In this document: one piece after another, positions 27,705 to 51,616 of the stretch
How the letters are laid out: each line of letters starts with the position of its first letter
Position numbering within the stretch: position 1 is the first letter of the stretch
The notes under the pieces: generated by a model
The model's input: the letters and a program-made list of their open reading frames with translations, nothing else
Told to the model about the DNA's origin: nothing
Database searches by the model: none
NCBI GenBank assembly: GCA_044336985.1
Contig: JBIIOK010000002.1
Coordinates: 4,199-68,198 of the forward strand
Direction: 5' to 3'
Length of the DNA: 64,000 nucleotides
From: Pirellulales bacterium
GTDB lineage: Bacteria > Planctomycetota > Planctomycetia > Pirellulales > UBA1268
Position numbers and translations under genes: made by a program

Positions 27705-27742
27705 AGGCAGGCTGAGGAACGACAGGCTGAAGCCTGTCCTAC
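27701..27742. repeat. family A units (degenerate 27701-27716 plus strand, 27721-27742 minus strand)
   Basis: Carry the stop codons of both convergent genes (TAG 27702-27704, CTA 27739-27741). Confidence 0.8.
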
Positions 27743-46598: not shown

Positions 46599-46973
46599 AT
46601 GGAGACTTTCCGCCTGCTCCTCTTCACGACGCTCTGGACCGCCATCTGGGCGGCGCCGCTGCCAACGCTCTCCCGCCGCGTGGAGCTCGTCGCCGGGCTG
46701 ATCCCGTTTGCCGCCTTCGGTCTGCGGGTGTTCGGGGCCTGCTTCATCGGCGTGCCGGCCGACGATCCCGTGCGGATGGCGGTGGCGCCACTCGTTGACT
46801 GGATCAACGGCGCGTCGGGCGTGGTGCCGTTTCAGTGGGTGCTCGACGTCACCGTGGCGATCGGGCTCGTGTGGTTCGCGTCGATCGCGAACATCTCGCG
46901 GCGGTGGCGACTGGCCACGATCTGGGTCATGCCGGCCGTGGCCCTCGCGAGCCTCGCAATACCCTCCCGCTGA
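46599..46973 (+). CDS. small hypothetical membrane protein (124 aa)
   Basis: Four hydrophobic segments. No motif recognised. Confidence 0.5.
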   Translation: METFRLLLFTTLWTAIWAAPLPTLSRRVELVAGLIPFAAFGLRVFGACFIGVPADDPVRMAVAPLVDWINGASGVVPFQWVLDVTVAIGLVWFASIANISRRWRLATIWVMPAVALASLAIPSR

Positions 46974-46976
46974 GCA

Positions 46977-47766
46977 TCATTTCATCGGGTGCTGCTGGAA
47001 GAACTCCCACATCATGTCGTTGGCGGAGATGTCGCGCGTGCTGGCGCCCAAGGCCCGCAGGCGTGGCTCTCTCCCGGGCCACGTTTGCCCTCCACCTTCG
47101 ATCACCACGAGCACGACCTCCGCGCCGTCTCGGCCGGAAGCGTAGCGGATCTCCTTCACGGTCGTGCCGTCGCCCGCCCTTGAATGGCGCAAACTCGTCG
47201 GCATCCCCATGAAAGTGCATCACGGATACGGCTCGGACCGGCTGACAGTCTTTCGTGCCCATCGGCCCGGCGACCGGGGCGATCGCGGCGATGCGATTTG
47301 AAAGCTCCGCAGCGAGCCGATAGCACATCATCGCGCCGTTCGACATGCCCGTGGCAAACACCCGCCATCGATCGACGTTTGCGATGCGCTCGAGATCGTC
47401 GAGGACCAGCCGGGTGAAGGCGACGTCGTCGATCTTGCTCTCGGCTGCCTTTCCGCAGCAGTTGCCCGCGTTGAATGTCAGCATCCGCGGGAGTCGGCCG
47501 CTTCCCTCCGGATACACGACGATGAATCCGGCCTGATCCGCCTTCTCGTTGAGCCCGCTGAACGCGACCATGTTGTTTGCGTTTCCGCCGCCCCCGTGAA
47601 AGGCCAGCACCATCGGCATCGGCGCGGCCGGGTCGTATTGCGGGGGCACATGCACGAGGTAGGCGCGATTGCGGCCATCCACCTCAAGCGACCGCGAGTG
47701 GTCGCCGGGCCGCAAAGCCGCAGGCTCGCCCGCGAGAAGCATCAAGAGAATCGCGAGGAATTGCAT
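46977..47766 (-). pseudogene. PHB-depolymerase-family esterase (LpqC-like), interrupted by a frameshift near 47171-47180
   Basis: N-terminal frame (ORF 46927..47835): signal peptide, VLAFHGGGGN, GMSNGAMM, MHFHGDADEFAPFKGG. C-terminal frame (ORF 46977..47210): GDGTTVKEIRY...VVIEGGGQTWPG...DISANDMMWEFFQQHPMK. Confidence 0.75.
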
Positions 47767-47848
47767 GCTGAACTCCGGGGTGGCCATGCATTCAACGGGG
47801 CCGTCGCGGAAAAGTTTTCCCGGCACAGGCCGCATCTGGTGGACAGCC

Positions 47849-47854
47849 TATAAT
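47849..47854 (+). promoter_or_regulatory. -10 box candidate TATAAT
   Basis: Perfect TATAAT in GC-rich DNA. No convincing -35. Confidence 0.4.
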
Positions 47855-47859
47855 TGAGT

Positions 47860-48043
47860 TGTGGTTCCCCGGTGACGGCTGGGGAGATAACCGCCTGGCG
47901 GCGATCTCGCAGTGATCGCGACGGCTAGGGTTCCTTTCGCGAAAGGAGGTGGTCTAGTGACGCAAGACTGTACCGGAGGGCTGCGCCGATAGCGGCGAGT
48001 CGACGGGCCTGCCGTTGATGCAGCCCACCAAATGGTTCCTACG
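47860..48043 (+). ncRNA. structured leader or small RNA candidate (riboswitch-like, unclassified)
   Basis: Several strong local helices: UCCCC/GGGGA, GCGAUC/GAUCGC, UCCUUU-CGCG-AAAGGA, and a three-way junction closed by GGGCUGC/GCAGCCC. Ends in a canonical terminator 44 nt before the next ATG. Confidence 0.4.
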
Positions 48044-48076
48044 GCTGCCGCCCCCTCGTGGGGCGGCAGCTTTTTT
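48044..48076 (+). terminator. rho-independent terminator
   Basis: 11-bp GC-rich stem GCTGCCGCCCC / GGGGCGGCAGC, 5-nt loop, then TTTTTT. Confidence 0.8.
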
Positions 48077-48119
48077 GATACACCCATTCGCCGAGCGCTG
48101 ACAGGACAGCCCCCTTCAC

Positions 48120-48503
48120 ATGAACGGCTTGCGCGATTTTGTCGCTGCAGTTTTCAAAACGCCGCCGGATGACGTGCCCCCGTGCGTCGCCCAAGTGAAT
48201 TCGTTTCGCGAGGTCGTGTCGCTGCAGGCTCTGTTCGTGACGCTCACCGTCGGACTCCTGGCGTATGTCAGAAGCTCGCCGACCTTCGAGATGCGGGTGG
48301 ATCTGCTCTTCGCGGTGCTGGCATCGCTGCCCCTGATGGGCCTCTATCACATCGTGACGAGCCGCGCGAGGACCGAATCGGGCGACGTCTACGTGTGCAC
48401 GAAGCCGATCCGCAGCTTCGCCCGGCAGGCGATGATTCTCGACATCGCGATCGTGGTCGCCGTGTCGTTGCTCTATTGGGGGCGGCAGCTCCCCGGGCAG
48501 TGA
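48120..48503 (+). CDS. small hypothetical membrane protein (127 aa, about 3 TM)
   Basis: ATG 44 nt after the terminator. Hydrophobic segments. No motif recognised (neither CrcB- nor SMR-like). Confidence 0.5.
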   Translation: MNGLRDFVAAVFKTPPDDVPPCVAQVNSFREVVSLQALFVTLTVGLLAYVRSSPTFEMRVDLLFAVLASLPLMGLYHIVTSRARTESGDVYVCTKPIRSFARQAMILDIAIVVAVSLLYWGRQLPGQ

Positions 48504-48695
48504 TGCCCTGGCAGCAACATGGCCTTCGAGCCGACGCCAGGCCGCAGGGTTTGCCCGTCTTCGCCACTTGAACGCACGCCGGGCAAAGTCCGGAGATTCC
48601 CCACATCCATCCGCACGGCTCTGCCGATGGTATCGACAAAACCGAATAGCGGGGCTGGCGACGTGGAAAGGCGGCATCATGCCACTGGGCGGTTG

Positions 48696-49952
48696 ATGCA
48701 ATGGCTGGCCGCCGGGCTGTGGTGCTGCGTTGTCGGCACCGTCGCAGCGGACGATCCGCCGCAGCCCTATCTCGAAGAGCCAAAATACGAGATGGCTCCG
48801 CATCTGCTCGGCTCGCAGGGCGGTTTTCGCGAGCGGCTGGCCGACGCCGGGGTGACCGTGCTCGCCGACAACACCGGCTTCTACATCGGCAACACCAACG
48901 GCGGCTTTGCCCAGGCCTTCGATTACGCCGGGCACGGCGACTATTGCGTGATCGCCGACGGCGGCAAGCTCGGCGTGCACGAGGGGCTCTATCTCAAGCT
49001 CCGTGCCGAGCATCGCTACGGGCAAACGATCGTCGGGAACGTGGGCTGCTTCATCTCACCGACGCTGATCGCCGACCTGCCGGTCTACAACAGCGAAGAG
49101 CTGTATCTGACGAACGTCCTGCTCACACAGGAGCTGACTGACGCATTCTCCGTGTTCGCCGGCAAGATGGACACACTCGACGGCGACATGAACGCCTTCG
49201 CCCATGGCCGGGGCAAGACGCAGTTTTCAAACATGGGGTTCGTCTTCAACCCGATCGTGGGCGCGACGGTGCCCTATTCAACGCTGGGGGCCGGATTCGT
49301 CTTCCATCCCGACGACGGGCCGATGGCGATGGTGACCGTGCTCAACTCGACCGACACGACGGCCACCAGCGGCTTCGACACGCTGTTCAGCGACGGCCTG
49401 CTTCTGTCGGCGGCCGTGCGAGTGCCCACGAACCTGTTCGACCGCCCGGGACACCAGCTGCTCGGCGGCACCTGGAACAGCCGCACCTACACCTCGATCG
49501 CCGAGGCCTACATTCCCTACCCAGACGTGCCTCTCCCGACGACGCGCGGCTCGTGGTGCCTCTATTGGAACTTCGATCAGTTTCTGTTCGTCGATCCGGA
49601 CGACGCAACGCGGGGCTGGGGCCCATTCGGCCGCGCCGGCATCGCGGATGCCAACACGAGCCCGATCGACGCGTTTCTGAGTTTTGGCGTGGGGGGCAAC
49701 GTGCTGGGCCGGATGCGGCGCGACGACACGTTTGGCATCGGCTGGTATTGGGCGTCGGCCAGCCCCCAAATCGGCACGCTGATCACGTCGCAGTTCGGCC
49801 CGGTTGGCGACGGCCAGGGCATCGAGTGCTTCTACAACTACGCGCTCACGCCCGCCGTCCGCATCACTCCGGACGTGCAATACGTCGTGCCGGCGCTCCG
49901 GTCGGCAGAGCCATCGCTGATCGCCGGCGCGCGGGCGCTCGTGAGCTTCTGA
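48696..49952 (+). CDS. carbohydrate-selective porin (OprB-like) family outer membrane protein
   Basis: ORF trimmed to MQWLAAGLWCCVVGTVAADD. Beta-strand-rich. FGIGWYW, ECFYNYALTP, ends in F. Confidence 0.75.
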   Translation: MQWLAAGLWCCVVGTVAADDPPQPYLEEPKYEMAPHLLGSQGGFRERLADAGVTVLADNTGFYIGNTNGGFAQAFDYAGHGDYCVIADGGKLGVHEGLYLKLRAEHRYGQTIVGNVGCFISPTLIADLPVYNSEELYLTNVLLTQELTDAFSVFAGKMDTLDGDMNAFAHGRGKTQFSNMGFVFNPIVGATVPYSTLGAGFVFHPDDGPMAMVTVLNSTDTTATSGFDTLFSDGLLLSAAVRVPTNLFDRPGHQLLGGTWNSRTYTSIAEAYIPYPDVPLPTTRGSWCLYWNFDQFLFVDPDDATRGWGPFGRAGIADANTSPIDAFLSFGVGGNVLGRMRRDDTFGIGWYWASASPQIGTLITSQFGPVGDGQGIECFYNYALTPAVRITPDVQYVVPALRSAEPSLIAGARALVSF

Positions 49953-50059: not shown

Positions 50060-50731
50060 TTACACGCAGCCCGCCACGGGGCGGAGCGCACTGCCAAGCT
50101 TGAGGATCGCTGACCGCAGCCGGCTCTTCACCGTGCCCACTGGAATCTTCATGACCTGCGCCGCCTGGTCGTATTTCATGCCGTGGTAATAGACGAGTAG
50201 GAGTGCCTCCTTCAGCGGCGGCGAAAGACCGTTGACCGCGTCTCGCACCCGCTCCGCCGATTCATGCTGCTCGGCCACGTCGGCCGCTGAATGACCCTCC
50301 TCCGAGAGCAGCGCGCAGAGCGAGCCGGCATCGTCATCGGGCTCCAGTTGCTGATCGAGGCTCACCGTGCGCCGGGTCTGGCCGCGGCGCTGCGAATCGA
50401 TCGCCTGGTTCTTGGCCACGGTGTAGAGCCACGGCCGGAAGCTGCGGCCATCCTCGAAATGCAGCCGGTTGACGTAGATCTTGAGGAAGGTCGACTGGAA
50501 GACATCGTCGGCCGACTCGGCATTGCCCAGATACCGCCGCAGGAATTCGTGGAGCTCGATGTCGTAACGATGCATGATCGCGTCGAACGCAGACCGATCG
50601 TCGTGGGCCCGAAACTCCCGAAACAGCTGCTCATCGGTCGCCGGGCTCTCGCTCGACGGCGCCGAAACCAGCCGAAGCGTGGGCAGGGGGGCGGGGCTGT
50701 TTCCGGTGTGCATGCGGCTGGCGGATGGCAT
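50060..50731 (-). CDS. ECF-type RNA polymerase sigma factor
   Basis: Region 2 DVFQSTFLKIYVN...FRPWLYTVAKNQAID, region 4 LPPLKEALLLVYYHGMKYDQAAQVMKIPVGTVKSRL. Confidence 0.9.
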   Translation of the reverse strand: MPSASRMHTGNSPAPLPTLRLVSAPSSESPATDEQLFREFRAHDDRSAFDAIMHRYDIELHEFLRRYLGNAESADDVFQSTFLKIYVNRLHFEDGRSFRPWLYTVAKNQAIDSQRRGQTRRTVSLDQQLEPDDDAGSLCALLSEEGHSAADVAEQHESAERVRDAVNGLSPPLKEALLLVYYHGMKYDQAAQVMKIPVGTVKSRLRSAILKLGSALRPVAGCV

Positions 50732-50987
50732 CGGGCGAATCTCCAAAGGCGGAAGTCTTCCGTGGCCGCTCTCAAAAGCACACGTCATGCCAAATGTCCA
50801 CAAGAACCGAATGTGCGGATTCCGCGGGCGTTTCACGGCATTTTGGGAGGGCTGCTGCCGCGCGTGAGACAAGCGGCGCGGCAATTTGCGGCAGTGCTCG
50901 GGCGAAATGCGGCAGTTTTTACCTGCAGTTCTTGCCGCGGCCGGGCATGCGATAGGATGGCCCCATACCCCTCCCGGAGGTGATCCC

Positions 50988-51461
50988 ATGCGGCGCGGCT
51001 TGTTTCTCTTTTTGGCGATCGGCTTCCTTGCTGCGACCAGCCTGGCCGCCGAGCCCACGCCGCCGCGGGCTGGACTCGCGAACCCCCGCACCGGCACGAC
51101 CAACAAGTTTGGCTCCGGCACGATCACCAACCGCTCCGACGGCACGAGCAGCCAGACGCGGCCCTTCGGCTCGGGGTCGATCACCACCGAACGCTCTCGC
51201 GACGGCAAGACGGTCACCGGCCACACGCAGAAATTCGGCTCGGGCACGATCACGCGTTGGTCGGACGGCACCGTCACCGAAACGCGGCCGTTTGGCTCCG
51301 GCACCATCACGACCGAACGCGGTCGCAGCGGCAGCACTGTGACGGGCCAGACGCAGAAATTCGGCTCCGGCACGATCACGAACCGCTCGGACGGCTCGAG
51401 CAGCCGCACGCAGCCCTTCGGCAACGGCACGCTGCAAAGCGACCGTCCGGGAAGAAAGTAG
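50988..51461 (+). CDS. secreted FGSGTIT-repeat protein (157 aa)
   Basis: GGAGGTGA SD. Signal peptide MRRGLFLFLAIGFLAATSLAA. Seven (K/P)FGSG(T/S)IT repeats. DNA period is 126 bp (51105, 51231, 51357). Confidence 0.7.
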   Translation: MRRGLFLFLAIGFLAATSLAAEPTPPRAGLANPRTGTTNKFGSGTITNRSDGTSSQTRPFGSGSITTERSRDGKTVTGHTQKFGSGTITRWSDGTVTETRPFGSGTITTERGRSGSTVTGQTQKFGSGTITNRSDGSSSRTQPFGNGTLQSDRPGRK

Positions 51462-51538
51462 GGTAGGCTTCAGCCTGCCACAAACCGACAGGCTGAAGCC
51501 TGTCCTACTGGGGACCGACAGGCTGAAGCCTGTCCTAC
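51458..51538. repeat. three family A units (51458-51479 plus strand; 51487-51508 and 51517-51538 minus strand)
   Basis: The first unit holds the TAG stop (51459-51461). The last ends 4 nt from the tRNA 3' end. Confidence 0.85.
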
Positions 51539-51542
51539 TCAA

Positions 51543-51616
<74 letters not shown>

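Follow-up and report, generated by a model that had tools for sequence, protein, structure and literature searches.

A conserved planctomycete RNA with its own predicted promoter and terminator: a candidate family of sibling, possibly dual-function small RNAs linked to a porin operon

What kind of RNA is specified by the structured segment that precedes a porin operon in a Pirellulales bacterium? The segment lies in a stretch of 64,000 nucleotides (contig JBIIOK010000002.1 of assembly GCA_044336985.1; the 64-kb window, to which all coordinates refer unless a homologous locus is named), in which a TATAAT box is followed by an array of local helices, an intrinsic terminator, the gene of a 127-amino-acid protein (p127), and a gene for an OprB-family porin. 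A first-pass annotation had read the segment as a riboswitch- or attenuator-like leader of p127 and OprB, perhaps a divergent ykkC variant, and had kept a free-standing small RNA (sRNA) of ~215 nt as a fallback. We compared it with homologous loci, which are numbered with the prefix L; helices are labeled P1, P2, P2', P3, P4, P5, P5a, and P5b. The comparison of sequences shows that positions 47861 to 48076 form a conserved self-contained unit, with a predicted promoter, a structured RNA of ~216 nt, and an intrinsic terminator, and that this unit often occurs as a pair of diverged siblings and in a wide variety of gene neighborhoods. As a whole, the data are best explained, with a probability of about 0.6, by a new family of sibling sRNAs that are probably dual-function and that at this locus would also act as an attenuating leader. 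The RNA would then be a stand-alone sRNA that doubles as a mini-mRNA.

A self-contained transcription unit in many gene neighborhoods

The unit lies on the forward (+) strand. Its -10 box, TATAAT (47849 to 47854), corresponds to the family consensus cTAyAAT; transcription is inferred to start at the purine 6 nt past this box (47861) and to end at the T-tract (48076). An upstream promoter element (47826 to 47836) carries GCC at -32 to -30, often as GCCrgAAT, in the -35 region. It has no match to TTGACA, and a consensus promoter scan called no -35 hexamer at the sRNA promoter. When 49 promoter regions are aligned at the presumed start site, the GCC element proves to be conserved. At the other end, a GC-rich stem-loop followed by a U-tract forms the intrinsic terminator (48043 to 48076), in which 48043 to 48054 pair with 48060 to 48071 (12 bp, 10 of them G-C) around the loop CUCGU, and T6 occupies 48071 to 48076. 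The terminator is retained, with T5 to T8, in the 45 full-length homologs described below. The outer half of its 5' arm, GGCUGC, is invariant among them, whereas the inner half varies at three columns, two of them one-sided and one compensated. As the first-pass annotation had noted, T-tract terminators are otherwise absent from the window: a scan of the 64 kb on both strands, which required an uninterrupted stem of 7 bp or more, with no fewer than 5 G-C pairs, directly ahead of T5, returned this site only.

Homologs were retrieved by an exact-pattern scan of one genome per species, in which GACTGTAC, GGAGGG, and CCCACCAAAT were held fixed. The scan yielded at least 50 loci in at least 45 species-level assemblies. 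All matched assemblies are labeled Planctomycetota except those of L037 (Chitinophagaceae, which is unexplained) and L051 ("bacterium" only), and most of the remaining ones are freshwater metagenome-assembled genomes (MAGs) labeled "Pirellulales" or "Planctomycetia." At least five assemblies contain two matches, of which the pair L053/L058 may be one locus split between contigs. In the alignment of loci, similarity sets in near the promoter and ends at the T-tract; between unrelated loci, conservation begins just upstream of the TATAAT box. The 45 distinct full-length copies have a mean column identity of 92%, with nhmmer E values of 1e-62 to 1e-77, and flanks that are mostly unalignable. With a predicted promoter and terminator of its own, and with conservation confined to the unit whatever its neighbors, the element has the appearance of a free-standing sRNA, so that the comparative data back what the first-pass annotation had proposed only as its fallback.

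The neighborhoods of about 50 copies were inspected by a crude gene prediction, filtered for GC content at third codon positions, combined with tblastn. A number of patterns emerged. (i) The RNA is found directly upstream of p127 or OprB at 12 loci, and one or both of these genes lie inside the 8-kb locus in 14 of 50 genome matches. (ii) At six loci, it precedes unrelated genes on the same strand; such neighbors include a giant glucan-synthase-like gene, an SbcD-like nuclease gene, and a 2-keto-3-deoxy-6-phosphogluconate (KDPG)-aldolase-like gene, names that derive from reading the sequences only. (iii) The nearest downstream neighbor is a convergent gene in ~21 of the ~50 contexts, and in 15 of these it lies within 300 nt. 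Since copies with a convergent downstream gene are equally conserved, the RNA cannot be only cis-acting. All-frame clustering of neighboring open reading frames (ORFs), which is noisy in GC-rich DNA, identified p127, OprB, esterase, and DTW-domain genes as the only recurrent neighbors.

The same variety is seen from the side of p127, for which 176 homologs were retrieved (69 to 97% identity), all from metagenomes or planctomycete MAGs. In the contigs that were examined for several of these homologs, p127 and OprB stay together, but their surroundings vary. The element is upstream of p127 in L001 and L002, as in the window, whereas its ~236-nt counterpart in L005 and L006 (88.7% identity) comes after OprB and is succeeded by convergent genes. 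In L009, the element is 10 kb upstream of p127, and a convergent called gene follows. No copy was present within 3 to 10 kb of p127 in L003, L004, L007, and L010 to L019, and an nhmmer search with the family profile revealed no divergent extra copies at these loci.

The copies fall into sequence lineages that are met again in different species, every lineage in a context of its own; examples are one with a 1-nt deletion in the P2' loop, one with a 3-nt insertion after codon 3 of the mini-ORF described below, and one with a TTG start. Some genomes carry two of these lineages. Recurrent lineages that are partly paired in one genome are the pattern of sibling sRNAs. Contigs break at or inside the sRNA in L042, L044, L050, and L058; MAG contigs that end in the sRNA are consistent with a multicopy repeat that breaks assemblies, and the repeat would explain how frequently such breaks occur at it. 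The copy of L074 (1116 to 1278 of this locus) lacks the promoter and the 5' third, lies directly behind a DMT_6-family gene, and carries substitutions at otherwise invariant junction positions (GGG to GCG and CGGC to CAGC). This copy has the appearance of a pseudogene in decay, and the changes at positions that are invariant elsewhere suggests that intact copies are under purifying selection. In the copy at L067 (2451 to 2648), the 3' arm of the terminator and the T-tract are replaced by unrelated sequence, so that it is either 3' truncated or rearranged.

The 5' domain was not encountered on another 3' part. An exact-pattern scan of metagenomes with 28 invariant bases of this domain (the family downstream base excluded) gave three matches, all of them full-length members; in this test, which covers exact patterns only, the domain was thus not combined with other expression platforms or genes, as a modular aptamer would be. 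Viral contigs scanned with the core pattern gave no match.

RNA structure and comparison with known RNA classes

The helices and the three-way junction listed in the first-pass annotation are all present in the sequence, as are the TATAAT box and the U6 terminator, whose stem spans 48043 to 48071. A 221-nt stretch containing the unit has a minimum free energy of -109.2 kcal/mol, compared to a mean of -92 ± 4.6 kcal/mol for 200 shuffled sequences (z = -3.8), none of which was as stable (0/200). We then derived a consensus structure with RNAalifold from the 45 distinct full-length homologs. Six helical elements precede the terminator in this fold, namely, P1, P2 with P2', P3, P4, and the three-way junction. 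Standard pairs are formed in 99.7% of the 2,833 cells, whereas slid controls fall to 34 to 57%. Both sides have changed at 7 pairs, as opposed to 1.6 ± 1.0 in 500 shuffles, and none of the shuffles (0/500) matched the observed value by any measure. By these counts the helices hold up among the homologs, with the qualification that the junction is nearly invariant.

The P1 hairpin (47866 to 47873 with 47878 to 47885; UUCCCCGG, loop UGAC/GACG, CUGGGGA) has 8 pairs, all cells of which are paired (100%); four pairs vary on one side and two are compensatory. P2 (47894 to 47899 with 47924 to 47929) encloses P2' (GCGAUC/GAUCGC; 47901 to 47906 with 47914 to 47919), the loop of which, UCUCGCAGUGA, is largely invariant. 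Of their 12 pairs, three show compensatory changes (UA to CG four times), and 99 to 100% of the cells are paired. Substitutions in P1, P2, and P2' are nearly all C/U opposite G or A/G opposite U, which is a signature of selection on pairing. In P3 (47931 to 47935 with 47944 to 47948; 5 pairs, 99.6% of cells paired), UUCCU pairs with AGGAG, and the loop sequence differs between lineages. P4 (47951 to 47955 with 47965 to 47969) pairs GGUCU with AGACU; its four inner pairs are essentially invariant, while its loop tolerates substitutions as well as a 1-nt deletion and the 3-nt insertion specified below. The three-way junction (47975 to 48029) is closed by P5, GGGCUGC/GCAGCCC (47978 to 47984 with 48020 to 48026), plus GG/CC, and contains P5a (GCCG-AUAG-CGGC) and P5b (GUCGACGG-GCCUG-CCGUUGAU). 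It is almost invariant in the 45 copies, and the rare changes are compatible with G-U pairing. The linker ACCAAAUGGUUCCUAC (48027 to 48042), unpaired in the consensus fold, joins the junction to the terminator; part of it was fixed by the search pattern, and its ACCA reads AUCA in the metagenome copy L073.

No Rfam family accounts for this structure. A cmscan of the whole window at gathering thresholds matched only a tRNA (51543 to 51616), and a scan of 47750 to 48200 at E values of up to 10 gave subthreshold noise, mostly terminator look-alikes, without a ykkC or other riboswitch model. The best subthreshold match was the Caulobacter sRNA CC2171 (RF01867), with 19.9 bits against a gathering score of 75. 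Both RNAs share a segment CGAAAGGAGGUG(A/G)UC-N-GUG, which here corresponds to the Shine-Dalgarno-like block and the start codon of the mini-ORF, and one GC helix, but 97 model positions are skipped in the alignment, and the planctomycete RNA is not a member of that family.

The proposed kinship to the ykkC/guanidine-I riboswitch (RF00442) did not survive the comparison. It had been based on the block GCUAGGGUUCC, but 44 of the 45 homologs read GC(U/C)GGG(A/G)UUCC here, and the A at 47927, which creates CUAGGG, occurs only in this window. The likeness to ykkC thus amounts to a chance block in a single sequence and a terminator that could serve as an expression platform; a conserved core block of the CUAGGGUUCCG type is absent, the ykkC models yield no match even at an E value of 10, and no class of genes regularly follows the planctomycete RNA. 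6S RNA was likewise discarded as a candidate, since there is no Rfam match and the consensus fold consists of separate hairpins instead of a long irregular rod with a central bubble.

The ~216-nt RNA is a previously uncatalogued family that is absent from Rfam, and its sequence was not found in the literature searched. In kind it would be a sibling or dual-function sRNA; the family itself is new. To our knowledge, essentially no sRNAs have been characterized in the Planctomycetota, in which regulation by small RNAs is almost unexplored. The family would represent a clade-wide, multicopy, and very strongly conserved sRNA in abundant freshwater planctomycetes, with features that are open to experimental test, namely, the promoter, the terminator, the mini-ORF, and the link to the porin operon.

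A putative mini-ORF and the link to the p127/OprB operon

A Shine-Dalgarno-like block, GAAAGGAGGUGGUC, extends from 47941 to 47954 on the + strand. It could form 14 consecutive pairs (one of them G-U) with the 3' tail of 16S rRNA, which we assume to be the usual bacterial GAUCACCUCCUUUC in this organism. AGGAGGTGGT is invariant in the 45 copies. The core of the block is sequestered in P3, and 7 nt after GGAGG follows a GTG (47957) that P4 presents in its loop. This GTG opens a mini-ORF (47957 to 47992, +; GTG ACG CAA GAC TGT ACC GGA GGG CTG CGC CGA TAG) with the deduced product MTQDCTGGLRR, whose stop codon lies in the loop of P5a. For comparison, GGAGGTGATCC serves the bona fide gene at 50988, where 5 nt likewise separate it from the ATG. 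The motif AAGGAGGTG was tried as an indicator of ribosome-binding sites, as it occurs 5 times in the window against 0.24 expected, and was rejected: the other copies are Lys-Glu-Val codons inside genes, and the only noncoding one is the sRNA block.

Several observations point to translation of this frame. The start codon is GTG or TTG, the stop codon is TAG, TAA, or TGA, and the frame comprises 11 to 12 codons in all 45 copies. In L068, GATAG is replaced by GCTGA, by which both Arg and the stop are kept. The only indel within the frame is one of 3 nt (GCT, ACT, GTT, or ACC after codon 3), whereas the remaining indels of the RNA are of 1 to 2 nt and all lie outside the frame, including a 1-nt deletion immediately before the start codon. 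At the third position of the Thr codon, all four bases occur among the 45 copies. On these comparative grounds, we consider it likely that the mini-ORF is translated.

Such an arrangement has precedents in the dual-function sRNAs SgrS/SgrT, RNAIII/delta-hemolysin, SR1/SR1P, and Spot 42/SpfP (reviewed in PMC12310071 and PMC12612679). Like these, the planctomycete RNA is structured, appears to be independently transcribed, and has a Shine-Dalgarno sequence, a start codon, and a small ORF of its own. It differs in that the ORF of 11 to 12 codons is interlocked with the most conserved helix of the RNA and in that the dual role is predicted. We know of no dual-function sRNA with an ORF as short as this; SpfP has 15 amino acids. 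If translated, the mini-ORF would hence be shorter than any dual-function sRNA ORF known to us.

Downstream of the terminator, a spacer of 43 nt (48077 to 48119, +) that includes the p127 5' untranslated region (UTR) leads to p127 (48120 to 48503, +), a clade-specific predicted membrane protein without a Pfam family. It is followed by the OprB-family porin (48696 to 49952, +; Pfam OprB, E = 1e-42), whose longest ORF begins at 48519. Position 48696 is the likely start, as it is followed by the signal peptide MQWLAAGLWCCVVGTVAA and agrees with the gene call in L001. Within the spacer, no promoter-like sequence was seen between the T-tract and the ATG of p127, and its 3' part aligns with the p127 5' UTR of loci without the sRNA. 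In several of the latter (L003, L004, and L015 to L017), a TATAAT/TATACT box is located ~45 to 50 nt before the p127 ATG and is followed, at the spacing seen in the sRNA, by (G)TCGTTyCyCGGCGA; that is, the sRNA promoter and the first ~15 transcribed bases are joined to the p127 5' UTR. The region upstream of the L003 promoter is homologous to the esterase-side flank in the window. In L031, the sRNA is 2.3 kb upstream, and the same promoter element stands in front of p127. Since sRNA-less relatives have the same promoter on p127 and nothing promoter-like is seen in the spacer here, the p127/OprB operon at this locus probably depends on read-through of the sRNA terminator. For the annotation of the window, this means that the operon probably has no promoter other than that of the sRNA.

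The RNA contains four segments that might permit such read-through to be regulated: segment 1, GGGCUGC (47978 to 47984, codons 8 to 10 of the mini-ORF); segment 2, GCAGCCC (48020 to 48026); segment 3, GGCUGC (48044 to 48049); and segment 4, GCAGC(U) (48066 to 48071). All four are invariant, and their possible pairings (1:2, 2:3, and 3:4) resemble the layout of a leader-peptide attenuator. When segment 1 is masked, the nascent RNA is predicted to fold a 2:3 hairpin (GCAGCC:GGCUGC; -10.7 kcal/mol). We propose that P3 masks the ribosome-binding site; on opening of P3, ribosomes would translate MTQDCTGGLRR and melt the closing helix of the junction. A ribosome positioned over GGGCUGC (47978 to 47984) would free GCAGCC (48020 to 48025) to pair with GGCUGC (48044 to 48049), which might aid read-through; p127 and OprB, probably lacking a promoter of their own, would be expressed only by read-through of the sRNA terminator. 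Translation-promoted read-through into p127/OprB is a plausible model, and the invariance of the outer GGCUGC beside a variable inner part of the terminator arm fits weakly with the former being under two constraints. The first-pass annotation had also pointed to a GGCGGC complementary to the terminator arm; the complementarity exists, although at 47898 to 47903 and not at 47900 to 47905.

The closest parallel in the literature is rnTrpL/peTrpL of Sinorhizobium meliloti, an attenuator-derived trans-acting sRNA with a 14-amino-acid leader peptide that has a function of its own (PMC7968998, PMC7298713). Like rnTrpL, the planctomycete RNA is predicted to be a short terminated transcript that starts at a promoter serving the operon behind it; in both, an ORF of leader size overlaps the first strand of alternative helices before an intrinsic terminator; and the released planctomycete RNA is a plausible trans-acting sRNA, known here from its sequence. 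The two are unrelated in sequence and in Rfam, however. The planctomycete RNA has twice the length, an extensive 5' domain, and a three-way junction; copies of it exist as stand-alone sibling genes without a downstream operon, and its antiterminator comprises only 6 bp. Moreover, its ORF lacks a run of regulatory codons. MTQDCTGGLRR has no codon run as in an amino acid attenuator, and the genes downstream encode a membrane protein and a porin. Should the mini-ORF be translated, the planctomycete RNA would join rnTrpL/peTrpL as a second attenuator-type transcript that also exists in its own right.

Linkage of an sRNA gene to an outer membrane porin gene is also known from enterobacteria, in which MicF is encoded next to ompC and MicC next to ompN. 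In contrast to these, the planctomycete sRNA precedes the porin operon on the same strand, with a promoter common to both; no complementarity to the start region of the porin or p127 was found, and the linkage exists in only about one-third of the genomes.

Alternative readings and remaining features of the locus

Different types of observation weigh against a dual-function, attenuating sRNA. (i) The evidence for coding is statistically thin and can be called suggestive, with a single site of in-frame indels, few stop codon variants, and codons 2 and 3 that vary nonsynonymously. (ii) The search pattern fixed GACTGTAC, GGAGGG, and CCCACCAAAT, so that the conservation of Asp-Cys-Thr-Gly-Gly and of ACCA is partly imposed. 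(iii) Pairing in P3 and P4 could by itself explain the conserved Shine-Dalgarno-like block, and the 3' half of the mini-ORF doubles as a P5 strand. (iv) Of ten codons, five either have A or U at the third position or are GGG, a type that is usually nonpreferred in GC-rich genomes. (v) The homologs are close (92% identity) and their phylogenetic depth is shallow; the nearly invariant junction is compatible with the structure and not proven by covariation. (vi) The 2:3 antiterminator covers 6 of the 12 terminator pairs and is predicted at -10.7 kcal/mol versus -26.7 kcal/mol for the terminator; equilibrium folds with an imposed ribosome footprint all keep the terminator, and the antiterminator appears only in nascent-transcript folding. 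(vii) In an RNAduplex search with five conserved segments, which covered the window on both strands, the start regions of p127 and OprB did not stand out by their complementarity; self-complementary matches aside, the top scores (z of about -4 to -5) are scattered over the window.

Much of this would fit a purely noncoding sRNA that acts in trans by base pairing or protein binding, in which the Shine-Dalgarno block and the GUG are structural or a seed and the frame is never translated. The AGGAG core and the GGUC of the block are indeed located in the stems of P3 and P4, the constraint on P5 alone would explain the invariance of the ORF 3' half, the behavior of codons 2 and 3 and the codon types just mentioned would suit an untranslated sequence, and sibling copies are typical of base-pairing sRNAs. 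We regard this alternative as one to be taken seriously, albeit unlikely, because it would leave to chance a 14-nt anti-Shine-Dalgarno match that is optimally spaced from a start codon reading GTG or TTG in every copy, the retention of a stop in frame as TAG, TAA, or TGA, including the triple change in L068, and the restriction of in-frame indels to 3 nt when those outside are of 1 to 2 nt, a combination that is improbable without selection on translation.

A more elaborate version of the dual-function model would make the RNA a translation-gated switch. Here, the 5' domain would control the opening of P3 and thereby the exposure of the 14-nt Shine-Dalgarno sequence, which is unusually long; the translating ribosome would unzip the junction, and the outcome would be a choice between the release of an abundant sibling sRNA, with a functional undecapeptide that acts in trans as in rnTrpL/peTrpL, and read-through into the porin operon. 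A single RNA would then be sensor, mini-mRNA, trans-regulator, and attenuator at once. We consider this version doubtful.

Conversely, the RNA could be a dedicated cis leader of p127/OprB, either a riboswitch or a ribosome-dependent attenuator, and its other copies recent nonfunctional duplicates. The 12 loci with the RNA directly upstream of p127 or OprB, the presence of these genes within the 8-kb locus in 14 of 50 cases, the promoter that it has in common with p127 in loci without the RNA, and the segments that allow 1:2, 2:3, and 3:4 pairing would all be in agreement with this. Yet copies in front of convergent or unrelated genes are equally conserved despite unalignable flanks, which indicates purifying selection on stand-alone copies, and the truncated copy of L074 shows, by contrast, what decay looks like. 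The position and orientation of the RNA relative to these genes are not constant (~21 contexts are convergent, and in L005 the RNA comes after OprB), a copy is lacking within 10 kb at many p127-OprB loci, no Rfam riboswitch matches, and the exact-pattern scan never showed the 5' domain with another expression platform. A dedicated leader is therefore improbable. What survives of the attenuator proposed by the first-pass annotation is a local role in cis, for which the promoter common to the sRNA and p127 speaks; its riboswitch does not.

It is very unlikely that the RNA is primarily a decoy that titrates either 30S subunits, by pairing of the extended Shine-Dalgarno block with the 16S rRNA 3' tail, or a CsrA-like protein, by way of three invariant GGA motifs. 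The 14-nt complementarity, the invariance of GGGAGA, AGGAGG, and CGGAGGG, and a strong promoter-like -10 box together with a strong terminator, which suggest an abundant RNA, could be cited in its favor. However, P3 keeps the Shine-Dalgarno core paired, the GGA motifs number only three, all of them outside the hairpin loops in which sponges of the CsrB/RsmZ type present many, and no CsrB/Rsm model of Rfam matches; a CsrB/RsmZ-type sponge was rejected on these grounds.

A tRNA- or transfer-messenger RNA (tmRNA)-like element, as might be suspected from the 7-bp acceptor-like stem GGGCUGC/GCAGCCC followed by ACCA and from a block UCGACGGG that resembles the tmRNA 5' end, is a far-fetched explanation, as is a mobile cassette similar to a miniature inverted-repeat transposable element, to which the variable contexts, the contig breaks at the RNA, the genomes with two copies, and a group II intron reverse transcriptase gene 441 nt downstream in L041 might be taken to point. 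ARAGORN detected no tRNA or tmRNA in 47700 to 48200, Rfam has no such match at the element, the junction is three-way instead of four-way and has no T-loop, and ACCA was fixed by the search pattern and is AUCA in L073; inspection of the alignment made no terminal inverted repeats evident (no search aimed at repeats was made), and a promoter marks the start of the conserved block. Finally, a protein-coding gene on the minus strand can be dismissed: an ORF of 79 amino acids (47848 to 48087) does span the element, but 1-nt indels in homologs (alignment columns 48, 70, 73, 96, 159, and ~175 to 180) break its frame, no gene is called there in related contigs, and its translation is of low complexity and rich in Pro, Arg, and Ala.

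The surroundings of the unit offer further observations. Upstream of the sRNA, a divergent esterase-like gene ends at 46927 and has its likely start at 47766 (the longest ORF starts at 47835). The ~190 nt between the p127 stop and the likely OprB start (48504 to 48695) are 70 to 94% identical among loci at the nucleotide level and travel with OprB, with which they stay even where p127 is absent (L040) or OprB is on the other strand (L063). This stretch is either an N-terminal extension of OprB, for which the reading frame stays open from 48519 onward, or a 5' UTR under conservation. When translated, it abounds in Arg, Pro, Ser, and Thr and does not resemble a signal peptide.

At about 10 loci, a DTW-domain gene is the divergent upstream neighbor of the sRNA, immediately so in L034, L041, L043, L045, L046, and L065; in L005, a gene with the Pfam DTW domain is found at -3.3 kb. 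We take the DTW domain to denote the tRNA aminocarboxypropyltransferase family, and its adjacency to the sRNA may be residual synteny rather than a functional link. The reverse transcriptase/maturase ORF of L041, ~441 nt downstream of the sRNA terminator, is of the group II intron type as judged from its sequence; some bacterial group II introns insert just past intrinsic terminators. An island of ~10 kb lies between the sRNA and p127 in L009 (2000 to 9200), with toxin-antitoxin, AbiEii, and IS3-family transposase genes. Its absence from the otherwise syntenic L010 and L011 suggests that the interval from the sRNA to the porin operon is an insertion hotspot.

On the other side, OprB is adjoined by an extracytoplasmic function (ECF)-type sigma factor gene (50060 to 51430, minus strand). 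Its longest ORF has 456 amino acids; since sigma domains occur only in the C-terminal 170 amino acids and the gene call in L001 has 223 amino acids, the N-terminal part of the ORF is probably noncoding. Palindromic units CAGGCTTCAGCCTG(TCGG...) are repeated at 51506 to 51560 (minus strand), in tandem beside the tRNA gene (51543 to 51616), and again at 27710 to 27736 (minus strand); they are probably the hairpins that the first-pass annotation had called family A, resembling repetitive extragenic palindromic elements.

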